From: Nitrospirota bacterium
GTDB lineage: Bacteria; Nitrospirota; UBA9217
Assembly: GCA_035623825.1 (NCBI GenBank)
Contig: DASPSR010000022.1
Span: 64,001 to 128,000 of the forward strand
DNA length: 64,000 bases
Reading direction: 5' to 3'
This document shows, piece by piece, positions 2,154 to 9,444 of this stretch; position 1 is the first letter of the stretch; every line of letters begins with the position of its first letter. The notes beneath the pieces are model-generated. The model was not told where the DNA came from. It saw only the letters and a program-made list of their open reading frames with translations, and did no database searches. The position numbers and the translations under genes were made by a program.

Positions 2154-3479
2154 ATGAACCCTATTTGCATAGTAGATGACGAATCTTCCATCGGTACCAC
2201 CATAGCCGGCATCCTGAGGGATGAAGGGTATCAGGCCGTGGTATTTCCGGATGCCGAGAGCTTCTGGCATAAGCTTGACATCATGGAGCCGTCTCTCGTG
2301 CTGCTGGATGTCTGGCTGCCGGGCATGGACGGCATGCAGCTCCTGAAAAGACTGAGGGAGCGGTATCCGTTGCTCCCTGTCATCATGATGAGCGGCCATG
2401 CCCGCATCGAGGCGGCTGTTGCGGCCATCAAGGACGGCGCCTATGATTTTCTCGAAAAACCGCTGCATCTTGAGGTCCTTGTCGACAAGGTGAAGTCCGC
2501 GCTGAAGCACCGGCCCGCCAGCCGCGACGCGGACCTGCCTTCGGATACGAGGCTTGAAATAGCCGATGCTGATCTATCGATCCCTCCCGGTACGGTAGAA
2601 GTTTCGGATTCCCCCGTGCCGCAGCGCACCATCAAGGGCAACGTTGTCCTGAACGGCATCGGACTTCTTAGCGGACGGAACACCGGCATCATCTTGAACC
2701 CGCTCGGGATCAATGAGGGGATAGTCTATCAGACGCTGGACGGCCATTCCATCAAAGGCCATATCACCTCCGTTGAGGACTACTCCCAGCCAGGGGCGAA
2801 GAAGACCTTCTCAGCGAACTCAACCGCCCTGTATAACGGAAGGCGGAAAGTGCGTACCGTCGAACACCTCATGGCGGTCCTTTCCATGTACGGCATCACG
2901 AACGTCCTGATCAAGGTCGATGAGGAGATCCCGAACGTCGACGGTTCTGCAAAGGACTTCTGCGATCTCATAGAGGAAGCGGGATTAGTAGAACAGTCCG
3001 CCTTCACCAAGGTCGCCATCATCCGCAGCAAGATAGGAGTGGGGAATGAGGGCCGCCAGGAAAAGCATCTCTACGCGGAGCCCTTTGAAGGATTCGAAAT
3101 ATCGATGCGCGTCGACTACCCGCCGCCCATCGGAGAACAGGTTCTTTCATTCAATCCGGCAAAAGATTCCTTTAAGAAGGAGATAGCCCCGGCCCGCTCT
3201 TTCAACACATTCGAAAATATCGAAATGGCCCAGAAGCTCGGAAAGGTCGGCGGCGGGTATCTTAATTCCCACATTATTATGTACGACGGCAAGGTCATCA
3301 ATACCGAACTTAGGTATGCCGACGAATTCGTGCGCCACAAGATATTGGACCTGATCGGAGACCTCTATCTTCTGGGCTTGCCCATCAGCGGGCGCATTAC
3401 CGCCAACATGACGTCCCATGGATACAATCAAGCGCTCGTGCAGCGCTTGTACCAGGCTGTCCAGAGCAGCACCCGGTGA
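2154..3479 (+). CDS. lpxC: Response-regulator receiver domain fused to UDP-3-O-acyl-GlcNAc deacetylase
   Basis: N-terminal REC (VDDE, LLD52VWLPGMDG, MSGH, FLEKP). C-terminal LpxC (QRTI..GIGLLSG, TVEHLMA, EIAPARSF, RHKILDLIGDL, SHGYN). Confidence 0.88.
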   Translation: MNPICIVDDESSIGTTIAGILRDEGYQAVVFPDAESFWHKLDIMEPSLVLLDVWLPGMDGMQLLKRLRERYPLLPVIMMSGHARIEAAVAAIKDGAYDFLEKPLHLEVLVDKVKSALKHRPASRDADLPSDTRLEIADADLSIPPGTVEVSDSPVPQRTIKGNVVLNGIGLLSGRNTGIILNPLGINEGIVYQTLDGHSIKGHITSVEDYSQPGAKKTFSANSTALYNGRRKVRTVEHLMAVLSMYGITNVLIKVDEEIPNVDGSAKDFCDLIEEAGLVEQSAFTKVAIIRSKIGVGNEGRQEKHLYAEPFEGFEISMRVDYPPPIGEQVLSFNPAKDSFKKEIAPARSFNTFENIEMAQKLGKVGGGYLNSHIIMYDGKVINTELRYADEFVRHKILDLIGDLYLLGLPISGRITANMTSHGYNQALVQRLYQAVQSSTR

Positions 3480-3585: not shown

Positions 3586-5028
3586 CTACATTATCTCAGA
3601 GACGGTATCGGCATCTCTGACATGCCCTAGCATCTTGAGCGGGCCCACTGTGGACCTCCTCTTATCCACGACATAGACGCTTCCCCCTATGGTCTTGGCG
3701 TACTCTTTCAGTTCCGCGGCAATTTCCGACACTTCGAGCGGGTTGTTCAAGCTGCGCTGGACATTTGTTACGATCGCTACGGATATTGTCATGATCGGGA
3801 ACCTGATCTCTTCTCCTAGCCTGTTGCTGCCGAGAATATATCCATTGTCACGGTCACACTGATCGTAGAACCCCGGTATGCGCCGGTCAAACTCACTTAT
3901 GATTTCACTGCAGATATGGTGCATGTACTTGGGCGTGGTGATGACCACAAAGTCGTCGCCGCCCACGTGACCAACGAAATCCTCGTGAATACCGTTACTT
4001 TTAACAGCATTCTCAATGATTCGCGCGGTTTCTTTAATCACTTCGCTGCCATGGGCATAACCGTAGCGGTCGTTGAATGCCTTGAAGTTGTTCATGTCCA
4101 GGACGCAGAATGCCATAGGTTGTTTCGATTCGAGACGTTTTTTCAGCACGTTTTCAATGGCGATTCCCCCGGGGAGACGAGTGAGCGCATTTGCATCGAG
4201 GTGCAACTCCTCGAGCTGCTGCAGCCTCTTGCCCATGGAGAGAAAAGATTCCGAGAGGTTGCCGACCTCATCTTTTGTATTAATCCGAGGGTCATAATCG
4301 AAGTGCCCTTTCGCAATATGCTCCGTTGCGACACTAAGCTTGTGGATAGAGAAGCAAATATGGCGGGTCACGATTATACCGGCCAAGCCGCCAATTATTA
4401 TGCTAAAAATACAGAGCAGCGCTGTGGTGACAAAAGCGAAACGACCGATCCGGCCGATTCGTTCCATCATGTTTGCCTGGGATTCTTTCGCCTCGACCGA
4501 CATTGCCTGGATCGTTTTGAAAAGCCGTATCCACTTGTTCTTTAGCTGACCACTTGATAGGGAGCTCGCTTTCGCCGCATTCCCGCTCTTTATCAGAGCC
4601 ACTTCCTTGACGAACAAATCGCTGTACTGCCGGTGGAGGCTCTCTAAGTTTTTGATGGGCAGGCCTTTTTGGCCGGGGAGCCCATCGAGTACGGCAAGCC
4701 AATGATTGAACTCTTTTCCACGCTTCCAGAACAGATCGACCATATTGCCTTTCAGGATCAGGTATCGTTTCTCATAATTGTCTTGAGCCAGGATTGCATC
4801 GAGCATTTTCTCCGACACTTCTTGTACGGGGATGTCAACCGTGATAATACTCTTGTTGAGGCTGTTCAGTCGCAGAAGGCTGATCAGTGCAAAGGCCACA
4901 ACAACCACTGTCAGCACAGCCAGCATCATATAACCAAGTATCATCTTGCTTACGATGTCCAATCTGGCGAAAAGCTTGTTAGGGGTCAGGAAATCCAATA
5001 TTCTATGCTGTACAGGGGGCTTCATCAT
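3586..5028 (-). CDS. Membrane sensor HAMP-GGDEF dinucleotide cyclase (Hypr-like signature)
   Basis: 2 TM segments, HAMP (KDEVGNLSESF), FKAFNDRYGYAHGS, HVGGDDF. Confidence 0.88.
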   Translation of the reverse strand: MMKPPVQHRILDFLTPNKLFARLDIVSKMILGYMMLAVLTVVVVAFALISLLRLNSLNKSIITVDIPVQEVSEKMLDAILAQDNYEKRYLILKGNMVDLFWKRGKEFNHWLAVLDGLPGQKGLPIKNLESLHRQYSDLFVKEVALIKSGNAAKASSLSSGQLKNKWIRLFKTIQAMSVEAKESQANMMERIGRIGRFAFVTTALLCIFSIIIGGLAGIIVTRHICFSIHKLSVATEHIAKGHFDYDPRINTKDEVGNLSESFLSMGKRLQQLEELHLDANALTRLPGGIAIENVLKKRLESKQPMAFCVLDMNNFKAFNDRYGYAHGSEVIKETARIIENAVKSNGIHEDFVGHVGGDDFVVITTPKYMHHICSEIISEFDRRIPGFYDQCDRDNGYILGSNRLGEEIRFPIMTISVAIVTNVQRSLNNPLEVSEIAAELKEYAKTIGGSVYVVDKRRSTVGPLKMLGHVRDADTVSEIM

Positions 5029-5574: not shown

Positions 5575-6096
5575 ATGATGACAAGAAGGCTCTTTTTGCA
5601 GTCAATGGCGCTTGTTGCCCTGTCCGGCTACACCAGGAACGTCTTTGGACTCGATAAAAGAGAGAGGGCGCTGAATCTTTACAACATCCATACCGGAGAA
5701 AGACTCGATGCAACGTATTATTCCTCGGGGATCTACGACCATGACGCCATGAGCGAGATCAATAACATCTTTCGGTGCCATTATACCAATGAGGTAAAAC
5801 CCATGGATGTCAAAGTTGTCGACCTCCTGTGTGACATAAAGGACGCTCTCGGGAAAGACAGAGAGGTGCTCATCGTTTCAGGATACCGATCACATGTCTA
5901 TAACGAATATCTGCTGAGTAACGGGAAGGGCGTGGTAAGTAACAGTATGCATCTCCAGGGGCGAGCAATAGATTTCCGCATCCCCCGTGTTGATAACCAT
6001 AAGCTTGCGACTCTGGCAAAGTCCTTTTATGCGGGCGGGGTCGGGAAATACCCTGAGTTCGTTCATATCGATGACGGGCGAGTCAGGTACTGGTAA
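5575..6096 (+). CDS. YcbK/MepK-family (DUF882, peptidase M15) peptidoglycan endopeptidase, Tat-exported
   Basis: TRRLFL Tat motif; HTGE, SGYRS, SMHLQGRAID, FVHIDDG..RYW. Confidence 0.88.
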   Translation: MMTRRLFLQSMALVALSGYTRNVFGLDKRERALNLYNIHTGERLDATYYSSGIYDHDAMSEINNIFRCHYTNEVKPMDVKVVDLLCDIKDALGKDREVLIVSGYRSHVYNEYLLSNGKGVVSNSMHLQGRAIDFRIPRVDNHKLATLAKSFYAGGVGKYPEFVHIDDGRVRYW

Positions 6097-6181: not shown

Positions 6182-7012
6182 CTATCTGGAGCGACGTCTG
6201 CTTCCCGGCGCATTGCCAATGATCAGGACCTTGGGCCCGTCTTCCAAGGGGCGTAATCCATCGCTATCAGGGGGCTGTGCGATGACCCATTCAAAGAGCT
6301 TCCGGGCATCTTCGAGTTCCGGCTGCACGGGATTTTTATAATATTCATTCTGCATGGCCTCGTCGTAAAGACCAATACAACCGTGTGATGCCGGATACCC
6401 GGGTAGGTCGCGGCCATGAAACCAGTAGGAGACCCCGTCTCTGTCTATGTGGAACCTGAGCCCGTAGTTCATCGGATAGAATGTGGATGTGTTCGGAATT
6501 TGGTATAATGACGACTCATGCTTCCTGCTGTATGCGGTTATCCTGAATTCACCCGTCGGGGTTTTGTTTTCCGGATTCCCTGTTGCGATGGGCGTTGAGA
6601 ACACCAGCTCCCCGTATTCATAAGCGCCGAGGAACTGCTCCGAGAGGTCCACGAGGATAAATTTAGCCTCTGATTCAGCGGGTTGATAGTGACGGGGCAT
6701 CGGCGTATAGTCCCGTATATCATCCAGACGTTTGGGGACTTTAAGGTACATGCCGGGGTATGTGTGACGCCTGTCTATCCTGTTAAAACGGGCAACGTCC
6801 TGCCACCTATCACCGAACATGCTTTCGAGCGTTTCGCCTTTGAGCAGACGTTGACAGTTCCATTCTATCGCCATATCGCTCATGTGATTGATTTTACAAG
6901 GGGAATAGGCCGTCTTCGCCGCTACGCTCCCCGAGTGGCTGATCGCGAGGAGCAGTGAAAGGCCGGCAAGCAAAAAGAAATTAGGGACTGAAATTGTCCT
7001 GTTTTTCATCAT
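6182..7012 (-). CDS. L,D-transpeptidase (YkuD family)
   Basis: Signal peptide; VDLSEQ, TPTGEF, HG..PGYPASHGCI catalytic motif. Confidence 0.88.
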   Translation of the reverse strand: MMKNRTISVPNFFLLAGLSLLLAISHSGSVAAKTAYSPCKINHMSDMAIEWNCQRLLKGETLESMFGDRWQDVARFNRIDRRHTYPGMYLKVPKRLDDIRDYTPMPRHYQPAESEAKFILVDLSEQFLGAYEYGELVFSTPIATGNPENKTPTGEFRITAYSRKHESSLYQIPNTSTFYPMNYGLRFHIDRDGVSYWFHGRDLPGYPASHGCIGLYDEAMQNEYYKNPVQPELEDARKLFEWVIAQPPDSDGLRPLEDGPKVLIIGNAPGSRRRSR

Positions 7013-7228: not shown

Positions 7229-7257
7229 TTGACAGCCGGATTCTTTTTTCGTATAAT
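7229..7257 (+). promoter_or_regulatory. Perfect-consensus sigma70 promoter of the groES-like gene
   Basis: TTGACA-17 bp-TATAAT; SD GGAGGAGG before ATG 7286. Confidence 0.8.
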
Positions 7258-7285
7258 AAGGCATTATCATGGGAGGAGGAATCCG

Positions 7286-7882
7286 ATGAAACTAAAACCG
7301 TTGCACGACTGGGCCGTGATTCTGCCCTCGACAGGTGATGAAAGGACCGCCGGTGGCCTGTATATCCCGGACACGGCGAAGGTCAAGCCGCAGGAAGGGG
7401 TGGTTGAGGCCGTCGGGCCGGGGGCGTATGAGGAGAAGAAACGCGGCAAGAAGACGAAGGAAGAGAAGCAGCGCAAATTTTTTTCCACGACAGTAAAGCC
7501 GGGCGACCATGTGCTCTACGAGCAGTATGCGGGGCAGACCTATAAAATAAATGGTGAGGAGCGCATACTGGTGCGGGAGCGTGATATTCTCGGCATTCTG
7601 CCGGAAAGACCATTGCAGATTCCCTCCATTACAGCCTCTGCGGGAACAACGGCGCTCACAAAGCGTGCGGCGCGTCCACGCGAGGAAACGTTGAAGCCCG
7701 GGAAGTCATCAGGAAAGACAGCGGGAAAAACGACGATGAGAGCTGCTTCGGAACCTGCTCCGAAAAAGAAGGCATCTAAAAAGGCCGCTCCGAAGGCGGC
7801 AAGGAAGAAGACCGCGGCCAAATCAACAAGGAAGGCCTCGGGCAGCGGGGCCAAAGGCAGGAAAACGGGGAAAAAGAAATAG
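7286..7882 (+). CDS. groES: GroES/Cpn10 co-chaperonin paralogue with a Lys/Ala-rich histone-H1-like C-terminal tail
   Basis: MKLKPLHD, mobile loop TAGGLYIPDTAK, VEAVGPG, VKPGD, RERDILG, then about 90 aa of basic low-complexity tail. Confidence 0.8.
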   Translation: MKLKPLHDWAVILPSTGDERTAGGLYIPDTAKVKPQEGVVEAVGPGAYEEKKRGKKTKEEKQRKFFSTTVKPGDHVLYEQYAGQTYKINGEERILVRERDILGILPERPLQIPSITASAGTTALTKRAARPREETLKPGKSSGKTAGKTTMRAASEPAPKKKASKKAAPKAARKKTAAKSTRKASGSGAKGRKTGKKK

Positions 7883-7891
7883 GGGCGTACC

Positions 7892-8482
7892 ATGGATGAC
7901 GACGTCGAATCGCGCGTGAATAAGATACGACAGCTTTTGGCACAGGAGATTGAGGACGGCGAGAACCTGGCCGCCGAGGCACGGAAAATGATCGCATACC
8001 TTCTTCTCGAAAAGAAGGGGTATCGACCGGATGATGTCCAAAGAGGCGTGGCCTTCGAGGTGGAACTCGGCGGGGGAGCAGCCATGTCCTCGGTGGATTT
8101 TATCGTTTCAGTCGACGGTATGAAGGCCATGATCGTTAAGTGTGCAGCGGGCTCGCTGGACTCCCGGCAGCGGCAGGCCGTTGCCGCTGCGAGGGTAATA
8201 GCCTCACCCCCTGTCCCGATTGCGGTCGTTGCTGACCCGGAGAACGCGGAGGTCATCGATGTAGCGACCGGCAAGGTGATCGGAGAGGGCTTCGGCGCCA
8301 TTCCTGTCAAGGGACAGCTTGTCCGAATCCTCGCTGAAACGGAAACCAAACCTCTTGCCCTCGATCGCATTGAGAAGGAAAAGCGCATTCTCCTGGCATT
8401 CGATGCCATCAAGTGCTGCGTTCCGCAGGGGACGGACGGGGGAGTGCAGCTTAAGAGCGGCGAAGTGAAAGAAATGAGCTGA
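7892..8482 (+). CDS. Stand-alone HsdR-N-terminal-like (restriction endonuclease fold) protein
   Basis: LLEKKGY, VDFIV..MIVKC, GSL.SR.RQ.VAAAR, PIAVV pattern resembles HSDR_N_2-like proteins. Confidence 0.55.
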   Translation: MDDDVESRVNKIRQLLAQEIEDGENLAAEARKMIAYLLLEKKGYRPDDVQRGVAFEVELGGGAAMSSVDFIVSVDGMKAMIVKCAAGSLDSRQRQAVAAARVIASPPVPIAVVADPENAEVIDVATGKVIGEGFGAIPVKGQLVRILAETETKPLALDRIEKEKRILLAFDAIKCCVPQGTDGGVQLKSGEVKEMS

Positions 8483-8604
8483 ACAGGCAGGTCAGGATTA
8501 ACCGCGCCGCCGCGAAGAGCCTTGTCCTCAAAGAGAACGCATGAGGATTTTTGTCCTTAGCGGCGTCGCGGCAGATTGGTTCCCCCCTCAACTTCCTTTT
8601 TGGT

Positions 8605-9444
8605 ATGACCCGACTCACCGAAGAAACCTTTGAGCAGACGCTTCAAACCTTTATCCACTCCGAAGAGATTGATCTCAGCGACGTCTCCTTCATCGACCCC
8701 TATGGCATGCTGGGTCTCCTCGAGATCGGCGAACTCTGCACATGCGAAGACGTACGGAAGGCTGTTGTTCTTCCGAGGTCCGGTGAGGTCCTCAAGTACC
8801 TCGAACGCATGGACTTCTTTACCCACGCGGGCCGTTATTTTTCTCTTGAACACTCCTCTGATGCACCTGAGAAATATCAGCGCAACCCCGATTCCGATGT
8901 ATTGCTCGAGATCACTCCTATTGAGCAATCCAACGATATCCACTACATCGTCGGGAAGGTAAGAGACCGCGCCCAAGCCATCCTCGCCACCCACCTGGGC
9001 TACAACGATCGCGCCATCGACGGTTTCATCGTGGCCCTCTCCGAGGTCTGCCAGAACATCATTGAACACAGCGAGAGCAAAGGATTCGTGGGCATCCAAA
9101 AGTACCGGTTCCAGAGCATGAATAAGAACGTGGTCAAGATCGCAGTCATGGACGCGGGCATCGGGTTTCGGAAGTCCCTGGCCGGCAGGTTCAAACTGCG
9201 GAGCGACCTTGAGGCCATCGACAAGGCGCTCCTGCATGGGGCGTCCCGGTACGAGGAAGAGGGCCGCGGCCACGGCCTAGCCGCTGTCCGCAGATTCGTC
9301 AATCAATGGCAGGGCAAGCTCTCCATCCGCTCAGGCACGGCCCGTCTCTGCATCATACCCACATGGGCCCGGGGCAGGGGACAGGAGCGGAACCTAACCC
9401 GCTTCCCCGGTGCGCAGATCAATATCCTCCTTCCGGAGGTGTAA
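8605..9444 (+). CDS. STAS-like plus HATPase_c (anti-sigma/RsbW-like) ATP-binding protein
   Basis: IDLSDVSFIDPYG STAS-like N-terminus; N-box SEVCQNIIEHS, DAGIG, GRGHGL; no HisKA helix. Confidence 0.75.
   Translation: MTRLTEETFEQTLQTFIHSEEIDLSDVSFIDPYGMLGLLEIGELCTCEDVRKAVVLPRSGEVLKYLERMDFFTHAGRYFSLEHSSDAPEKYQRNPDSDVLLEITPIEQSNDIHYIVGKVRDRAQAILATHLGYNDRAIDGFIVALSEVCQNIIEHSESKGFVGIQKYRFQSMNKNVVKIAVMDAGIGFRKSLAGRFKLRSDLEAIDKALLHGASRYEEEGRGHGLAAVRRFVNQWQGKLSIRSGTARLCIIPTWARGRGQERNLTRFPGAQINILLPEV

Follow-up and report, generated by a model that had tools for sequence, protein, structure and literature searches.

A receiver domain fused to LpxC in Nitrospirota: a reduced NtrX-type regulator that may place lipid A synthesis under two-component control

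Introduction

LpxC carries out the committed step to lipid A and is the control point of lipopolysaccharide (LPS) synthesis, as well as an antibiotic target. Response regulators with enzymatic output domains are known, among them CheB, in which a receiver gates an esterase, and also PleD/WspR and RpfG. The present study concerns a gene in which a receiver (REC) domain and LpxC are joined in one open reading frame (ORF). It lies in a stretch of 64,000 nucleotides (hereafter the window) of the genome of a Nitrospirota bacterium (assembly GCA_035623825.1, contig DASPSR010000022.1, positions 64,001 to 128,000 of the forward strand).

Regulation of lpxC by two-component systems has been reported at the level of transcription. 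According to the available parts of the sources, loss of NtrYX in Rhodobacter sphaeroides raises lpxC mRNA 8.8-fold and increases LPS, an indirect effect (PMC7240162), the regulator DVU2934 of the D. vulgaris DVU2931–DVU2934 system has lpxC as its single mapped target (PMC3333781), and lpxC belongs to the ChvI regulon (bioRxiv 10.1101/2021.04.17.440287). The NtrYX and DVU2934 cases, as far as given there, thus provide a biological precedent for two-component control touching lpxC. The controls of LpxC named in the available text of a 2025 review (PMC12444477) are proteolysis through FtsH/LapB, activation by MurA in Pseudomonas, possible turnover by Lon, the LapB homologue Ght of Neisseria, and transcription by NtrYX and ChvGI. 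In that text the words “receiver” and “fusion” have 0 occurrences each, and NtrYX appears only as a transcriptional regulator of lpxC. No receiver–LpxC fusion was found to be described in the literature searched, which comprised titles and abstracts together with the available text of this review, with subscription-only papers and supplements lying outside it.

Domain organization of the fused protein

The ORF occupies positions 2154..3479 on the forward strand, from an ATG start to a TGA stop at 3477–3479, and encodes 441 amino acids. The ATG at 2154 is favored over a GTG at 2133 because the homologues begin with MNPICIVDD. A Pfam scan detected an NtrX/NtrC-like REC domain at residues 4–113 (2163..2492, forward strand; PF00072, E 5.6e-28, 97.8 bits against a cut-off of 30.2). 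Its receiver pocket is complete, with D8, D9, D52, S80, F99 and K102-P103, the codon of the predicted phospho-acceptor D52 being located at 2307..2309 (forward strand). NtrX was the best match of the REC domain both in NCBIfam (NF051870) and in the PDB (Brucella 4d6x and 5m7n), the NF051870 score of 116 bits against a cut-off of 600 being due to the REC portion only. Neither a sigma54-type AAA+ domain nor HTH_8 was found by the Pfam scan of the protein. The protein derives from the NtrX/NtrC-type family of enhancer-binding proteins without belonging to it.

The LpxC deacetylase domain covers residues 157–433 (2622..3452, forward strand) and was detected with PF03331 (E 1e-72, 245.3 bits against a cut-off of 27) over profile positions 1–267 of 268. 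The NCBIfam equivalog for lpxC, TIGR00325, scored 207.1 bits, its cut-off being 187.25, and LpxC chains in the PDB matched the domain at E 4e-42, with those of P. aeruginosa at about 1e-41. In the alignment to the P. aeruginosa chains, E237-H238 (2862..2867) correspond to E77 and H78 of that enzyme, which serve as general base and first Zn ligand. The stretch H395-K396-I-L-D399-L-I-G-D403 (3336..3362) holds the His and Asp Zn ligands, the lysine and the Asp that pairs with the catalytic His, and H422 within SHGYN (3417..3419) aligned to the catalytic H264/H265 of canonical LpxC, all on the forward strand. The protein ends eight residues past the Pfam domain.

The two domains are separated by a linker at residues 119–153 (2508..2612, forward strand), which is predicted to be disordered and is poorly conserved, as judged from the predicted local distance difference test (pLDDT) of an AlphaFold2 model and from the ratio of nonsynonymous to synonymous substitution rates (dN/dS). 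Its length differs among relatives. The full-length model, built with 22 aligned relatives, had a mean pLDDT of 84.4 and a predicted template modeling score (pTM) of 0.68 with both domains confident, and pLDDT fell below 50 at linker residues 120–140. An initial annotation made from the sequence of the window had listed D8/D9, D52, a serine and a KP pair in the receiver, the retained Zn and catalytic motifs of LpxC and a linker of about 35 residues, and all of these were recovered. The best explanation of this architecture is that the window encodes a predicted orphan response regulator with an LpxC enzyme as its output domain.

Distribution of the fusion

The window belongs to a genome (G000) that is 89.65% complete and to a family (f1) represented by 64 genomes. 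Matches that start at residue 1 of the query and reach residue 437 or beyond were found in 34 of 301 genomes of the phylum, and all 34 lie within this family. The 237 genomes of 33 other families gave E-values no better than 4e-48, which indicates matches to LpxC only. In a search of 5.8 billion proteins, both Pfam domains were present in 120 of the 120 matches listed, at 81–96% identity, and the named proteins among the matches listed were recorded as plain LpxC of Nitrospirota metagenome-assembled genomes (MAGs). A profile scan of genome contigs gave at least two full-length fused loci (L034, L035), most of its matches being canonical LpxC, and a metagenome scan with P0127 gave at least four full-length fusions, these being among the 80 loci listed.

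The junction was also found in a contig of independent origin. Seven peat metagenome runs (X3–X9), none of them flagged as a possible source, contained 0.25–0.97 of the sampled words, three of them less than half. A 1796-nt contig from X3 covers positions 1700–2981 with 0 differences, running from the upstream DNA through the receiver and linker into LpxC. An RNA run (X11, share 0.14) yielded a 199-nt contig covering 2453–2651 across the linker, again with 0 differences; since RNA libraries can contain DNA, it hints no more than weakly that the gene is transcribed. The fusion is real, intact and conserved.

It should be noted that the gene is split in two genomes of genus g10, at 8378–9695 of L125 (G239) and 5561–6879 of L126 (G227), by insertions of +1 and +2 at different places in the linker. 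The assemblies consist of few contigs (7 and 9), so these splits may be either sequencing errors or real independent events.

Replacement of the canonical lpxC

A scan of the 64 family genomes with PF03331 separated the matches into two score classes, a canonical one of 341–365 bits with open frames of 302–399 amino acids and a fused one of 237–257 bits with open frames of 442–560 amino acids. Both copies were found in 22 of the 64 genomes, the fused type alone in 20 and the canonical type alone in 18; three had neither and one had a short unclassified fragment. The fused type is therefore present in 42 genomes, intact in 34 and fragmentary, split or broken in eight, and the canonical type in 40. 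Genomes with only the fused type include eight that are 97–100% complete (G042, 100%; G075, 99%; G033, G127 and G057, 98%; G091, G115 and G119, 97%). The fused gene is a paralogue of the canonical lpxC of the family, and its protein shows 35–37% identity to the canonical LpxC of its genus.

The initial annotation had advised looking for a second, unfused lpxC in the genome. None was found, the single PF03331 match in G000 being the fused gene, and the canonical gene proved to be deleted at the syntenic site. In G209 and G176, of the same genus, the canonical lpxC sits between two genes whose orthologues in G000 are 82–91% identical. In G000 these orthologues adjoin on one contig (C18), approximately 277–370 bp apart as opposed to approximately 1430 bp in G209, and no LpxC remnant was detected in the gap (best tblastn E 1.8). 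Since the flanks are contiguous, the missing gene is not explained by an assembly gap. The genome keeps lpxA (344.9 bits, above the cut-off), an adjoining lpxD-like gene, lpxB and lpxK. With the canonical lpxC deleted and the other genes of the Raetz pathway kept, no LpxC besides the fusion was found in G000. The fused gene is, on this syntenic evidence, a paralogue that replaced the canonical lpxC, a point missed by the initial annotation.

Decay in both directions was seen elsewhere in the family. In G242 the fusion is intact and the canonical-type lpxC is spread over three frames (L210, C43:27000–30000); in G170 it is the canonical gene that is intact, the fusion being interrupted by a frameshift and a TAG codon (L211, C14:234000–237500). 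These breaks may be assembly errors.

Phylogeny and origin from NtrX-type regulators

To place the fused LpxC, a tree was built by a quick search with midpoint rooting from sequences picked from the best matches to the query. Its 54 fused-type domains, comprising 48 signaling-fused domains and six LpxC-only fragments or split forms, were split by one branch with 98% SH-aLRT support from 76 canonical domains, the latter including 20 canonical Nitrospirota sequences and LpxC–FabZ fusions. The Nitrospiraceae fusions formed a subclade with 99% support. As placed by this tree, the signaling-fused LpxCs are a single clade, for which no published name was found.

To collect architectures within the clade, 1.84 billion cluster representatives were searched without a profile, and the matches were scanned with Pfam. 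Three were seen: REC–LpxC at 31–45% identity; forms of 650–736 amino acids (650–741 over the clade as a whole) with REC, Sigma54_activat (AAA+), AAA_lid_14 and LpxC, several of them with HTH_8; and forms of 491–505 amino acids with REC, HTH_8 and LpxC. REC is retained alongside LpxC in 46 of the 48 fused-architecture proteins, the other two having no aligned REC. The named members are from Nitrospinota and Candidatus Entotheonellia MAGs, one of them called NtrX by JGI, and two records labeled as delta-proteobacterial MAGs carry related fusions, as the initial annotation had guessed.

Long and short forms pair closely in the tree (P0132 of 735 amino acids with P0126 of 491, 99% support; P0129 with P0135), showing that the central modules, including AAA+, were lost repeatedly. 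Among the 18 proteins longer than 560 amino acids, of which 15 are full-length REC–AAA+–LpxC proteins and three start inside or just before the AAA+ module, simple regular expressions found GAFTGA in 0 and Walker A in 15. These counts agree with an AAA+ module of NtrX-like type that is in decay. At two loci from metagenomes (L129 and L130), an NtrY-type kinase of 758–767 amino acids with NtrY_N, HAMP, HisKA and HATPase_c, and in one of the two also PAS, ends 21–57 bp upstream of the long form on the same strand. An ABC_tran and ABC2_membrane pair also lies beside the ntrY–REC–AAA–LpxC operon in both loci.

The most economical history would be that of an ntrY–ntrX operon in which the regulator became fused to LpxC and was then reduced to REC–LpxC, the direction from long to short forms being a matter of inference that the tree alone does not give. 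From these relationships, which the initial annotation also missed, the fused gene derives from NtrY–NtrX::LpxC systems, and the gene of the window is a reduced, orphan form of the NtrX–LpxC clade.

Conservation and selection

In the 130-domain alignment, the residues E237, H238, H395, K396, D399, D403 and H422 are invariant in both the fused-type (54/54) and the canonical (76/76) sequences. The fused clade departs from the canonical sequences at six positions that are conserved within it (G178, Y246, K254, C270, E309 and P323), the column of K254 being E in 56 of 76 canonical sequences, and the fused LpxC has a three-residue insertion relative to the canonical one. The receiver columns were examined in the 46 members of the fusion family with an aligned REC, in which D52 is kept in 41, D9 in 43, S/T80 in 45, K102 in 43 and F/Y99 in 41.

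For 26 orthologues taken from 23 genomes, the median dN/dS was 0.120 in the receiver and 0.091 in LpxC and reached 0.313 in the linker, the mean identity of the linker being 0.67. The receiver is as constrained as the enzyme by the first two values and, on this measure, is under purifying selection as strong as that on the enzyme.

Genomic neighborhood

The fused gene has a gene for a CPA1-type cation/proton antiporter as its upstream neighbor and is followed by a convergent gene for a 480-aa HAMP-GGDEF protein (3586–5028, reverse strand), in which the GGDEF cyclase domain may be truncated or degenerate because only profile positions 6–89 of 161 are matched. At 2–3.5 kb from the fusion, a DUF882/peptidase M15 gene (5575–6096, forward strand) and a YkuD L,D-transpeptidase gene (6182–7012, reverse strand) lie side by side, both with functions in cell-wall remodeling. 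This pair is not kept beside the fusion in relatives. A 217-aa ORF at 7229–7882 (forward strand) has a Cpn10 (GroES) domain at residues 21–123 and is approximately twice the usual length.

The initial annotation had reported no other lpx gene or kinase next to the fusion. This agrees with the absence of other lpx genes within about 5 kb and with the lack of HisKA in the sole HATPase_c protein. The latter, a 297-aa HATPase_c/HATPase_c_2 protein (8551–9444, forward strand), resembles the anti-sigma-factor type more than a sensor kinase and was rejected as cognate kinase, being without HisKA and matching HATPase_c_2. In two close g3 genomes only (G069 and G050), a Cys-rich cytoplasmic kinase-like protein with HATPase_c and an HDING H-box is encoded just downstream of the fusion (L117 6836–7960, reverse strand; L128 10018–11280, forward strand), and no homologue of it was found in G000.

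Many pairs of a kinase and an NtrC-type regulator are encoded in G000 and could cross-talk with the receiver. The closest paralogue of the receiver in this genome (44% identity) belongs to an orphan NtrC-type protein on contig C43. This locus (C43:42829–46073; L209 2829–6073) holds a 465-aa REC–AAA+–HTH_8 activator with genes for an ABC ATPase and an ABC-2 permease after it, the same pair of domains as next to the LpxC operon of L129 and L130.

With regard to promoters, a search of the window for the sigma-54 consensus with at most two mismatches gave 22 matches against 26 expected, none of them in 1815–2153, and a sigma-70 scan gave no forward-strand site upstream of the fused gene.

The fused protein of G151, a genome of another genus, is 89% identical to that of the window, and those of its congeners are 79–82% identical. 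In G239, the split fused gene is immediately followed by a DDE transposase gene (L125 9965–11716). Along with the variable surroundings and this transposase, the 89% identity across genera g1 and g7 hints that the fused gene may have been transferred within the family.

Proposed control of LpxC activity

It is proposed that a histidine kinase encoded elsewhere, or a small phosphodonor, would phosphorylate D52, and that phosphorylation would change the conformation or oligomeric state of the receiver. This change would in turn alter LpxC activity, as the CheB receiver gates its esterase, with activation and inhibition both possible, and lipid A flux would directly follow a two-component signal at the protein level. 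Such control is put forward because the receiver is intact and under selection, because the LpxC is intact and the sole one, and because the protein descends from NtrY-coupled regulators. On these sequence features and the analogy, control of LpxC activity by phosphorylation of D52 is regarded as the probable, if far from assured, role of the receiver. The fusion suggests that a sensor kinase may act directly on LpxC, a kind of control absent from the literature searched. A wider reading is put forward tentatively, with its chance placed somewhat below even: that a two-component signal directly switches LpxC in these Nitrospiraceae, that the receiver-gated LpxC repeatedly displaced the stand-alone lpxC and became the only entry into outer-membrane lipid synthesis, and that the family, from NtrY kinase and NtrX–LpxC to orphan REC–LpxC, records a transcriptional lpxC regulator turned into a post-translational switch.

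Several observations weigh against direct control of activity. With a linker of great length, disorder and variability and a pTM of only 0.68, no defined REC–LpxC interface is predicted. A complex prediction of REC (1–122) with LpxC (150–441) had a score of 0.00, which is evidence neither way on docking. The eight neighbor genes of the window were found beside the fusion in 0 of 17 related loci, same genus included, Pfam scans of 66 flanking proteins revealed no recurrent partner, and NtrY_N (PF19312) had no match in G000 at its 89.65% completeness. Near the active site, the Nitrospiraceae subclade carries substitutions: the H of 72/76 canonical sequences is replaced by L172 (8/54 fused), the canonical T by S349 (10/54 fused) and FGF by FNTF.

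Other control routes may also operate. At C8:1119–2426 (L213), 5 kb from lpxK, G000 encodes a protein that has TPR repeats and ends in a Zn ribbon and is distantly LapB-like, scoring 96.8 bits with NF008757 against an equivalog cut-off of 363. The LapB Zn-ribbon profile PF18073 (Zn_ribbon_LapB) was unspecific in the six-frame search, with matches in 10 of 14 control genomes, and one of its two matches is RadA. The initial annotation had placed phosphorylation in the stead of FtsH/LapB control, which is not supported in view of the LapB-like gene; the receiver may work in addition to some other route of control without having taken its place.

Rather than its activity, the receiver could set the amount of LpxC, with its phosphorylation state exposing or hiding a degradation signal or recruiting a protease or adaptor, which would resemble the control of LpxC by proteolysis in E. 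coli. RssB and CpdR are receiver-type protease adaptors, and the E. coli FtsH degron of LpxC is a longer C-terminal tail, which the fused protein, ending eight residues past the domain, probably lacks. The long disordered linker could be a protease entry site, a LapB-like gene is present, and LpxC is under proteolysis in E. coli and possibly, through Lon, in alphaproteobacteria according to the available text of the review (PMC12444477). The sequence, however, points to no particular protease, the conservation data are equally compatible with control of activity, and regulation through stability is considered unlikely. Slightly more doubtful still is a receiver that works independently of phosphorylation, as a constitutive dimerization, folding or localization module from NtrX in a fusion without signal. 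The lack of a kinase next to the gene of the window, of a recurrent partner in the 17 related loci and of an NtrY_N match in G000 would agree with this, as would the decay of ancestral signaling parts in the long relatives (GAFTGA in 0/18, Walker A in 15/18). However, a receiver that has ceased to accept phosphate usually loses the residues of the acidic pocket, the Asp, the Ser/Thr and the Lys. Here 41–45 of 46 members retain the acidic pocket along with D52, S/T80 and K102, REC has a dN/dS of 0.12 and the long relatives still lie behind NtrY kinases.

Two further explanations concern the gene itself. The fused protein might be an accessory or conditional isozyme, or an enzyme of shifted substrate, with an unassembled canonical lpxC doing the housekeeping. 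The incompleteness of G000 (89.65% complete) leaves room for such a gene, both copies occur in 22 of the 64 family genomes, and the protein is only approximately 37% identical to canonical LpxC with a PF03331 score approximately 100 bits lower. This is nevertheless very improbable given that the syntenic locus of G000 is contiguous with lpxC cleanly missing, that the fusion stands alone in eight genomes of 97–100% completeness and that TIGR00325 scores above its equivalog cut-off with all catalytic residues kept. As for an assembly or gene-calling error joining two genes, which the initial annotation had named as a way in which the fusion could fail, REC and LpxC do lie in different frames in the g10 genomes G239 and G227, but at different linker positions and in assemblies of 7 and 9 contigs. 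With intact orthologues in 34 of 64 family genomes, both domains in 120 of 120 metagenome proteins among the matches listed, and independent contigs, including one from peat, bridging the junction with 0 differences, this explanation is practically discounted and was rejected.

Comparison with known systems

If control of LpxC activity by the receiver is true, the fusion would represent a different and directly testable mechanism of LpxC control. In a peat-dwelling Nitrospirota genome, REC–LpxC can be the only LpxC of the organism, and the fusion family ties NtrYX signaling to the cell envelope independently of alphaproteobacterial genetics. The result also matters for annotation, since public sources name the fused proteins plain LpxC. 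Particular to the window are its orphan form from Nitrospiraceae, the loss of the canonical gene from the syntenic site, the three states in which the two lpxC copies are distributed, and the selection analysis.

Compared with the stand-alone LpxC of E. coli, P. aeruginosa and A. aeolicus, the domain is full length with identical Zn and catalytic residues, and the genome holds the Raetz genes. It differs by the N-terminal receiver and linker, its separate clade, the six signature positions and the three-residue insertion. LpxC–FabZ proteins (NF009667; P0211, P0236, P0258 and P0263) are likewise natural fusions of LpxC to a second domain; their partner, however, is C-terminal and metabolic, not signaling, and in the tree they group with the canonical sequences. 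The arrangement of N-terminal receiver, flexible linker and C-terminal enzyme is that of CheB (receiver and methylesterase), which serves here as the model, but the catalytic domains are unrelated and no inhibitory docking of REC on LpxC is predicted.

The DVU2931–DVU2934 system, with its DNA-binding regulator, is a precedent for two-component control dedicated to lpxC, differing from the fusion, as far as the available part of the source goes (PMC3333781), in that it is transcriptional and that regulator and enzyme are separate proteins. Also related is NtrY/NtrX of Brucella abortus, R. sphaeroides and Caulobacter crescentus: NtrX gives the best matches to the fused REC, and the long relatives are REC–AAA+–HTH proteins without GAFTGA, with an NtrY-type kinase immediately ahead of two of them. 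The protein of the window departs from it in having neither AAA+ nor HTH, with no NtrY_N kinase found in G000, and in that its link to LpxC is a covalent fusion, whereas the link in R. sphaeroides is, by the available part of that source, transcriptional and indirect.

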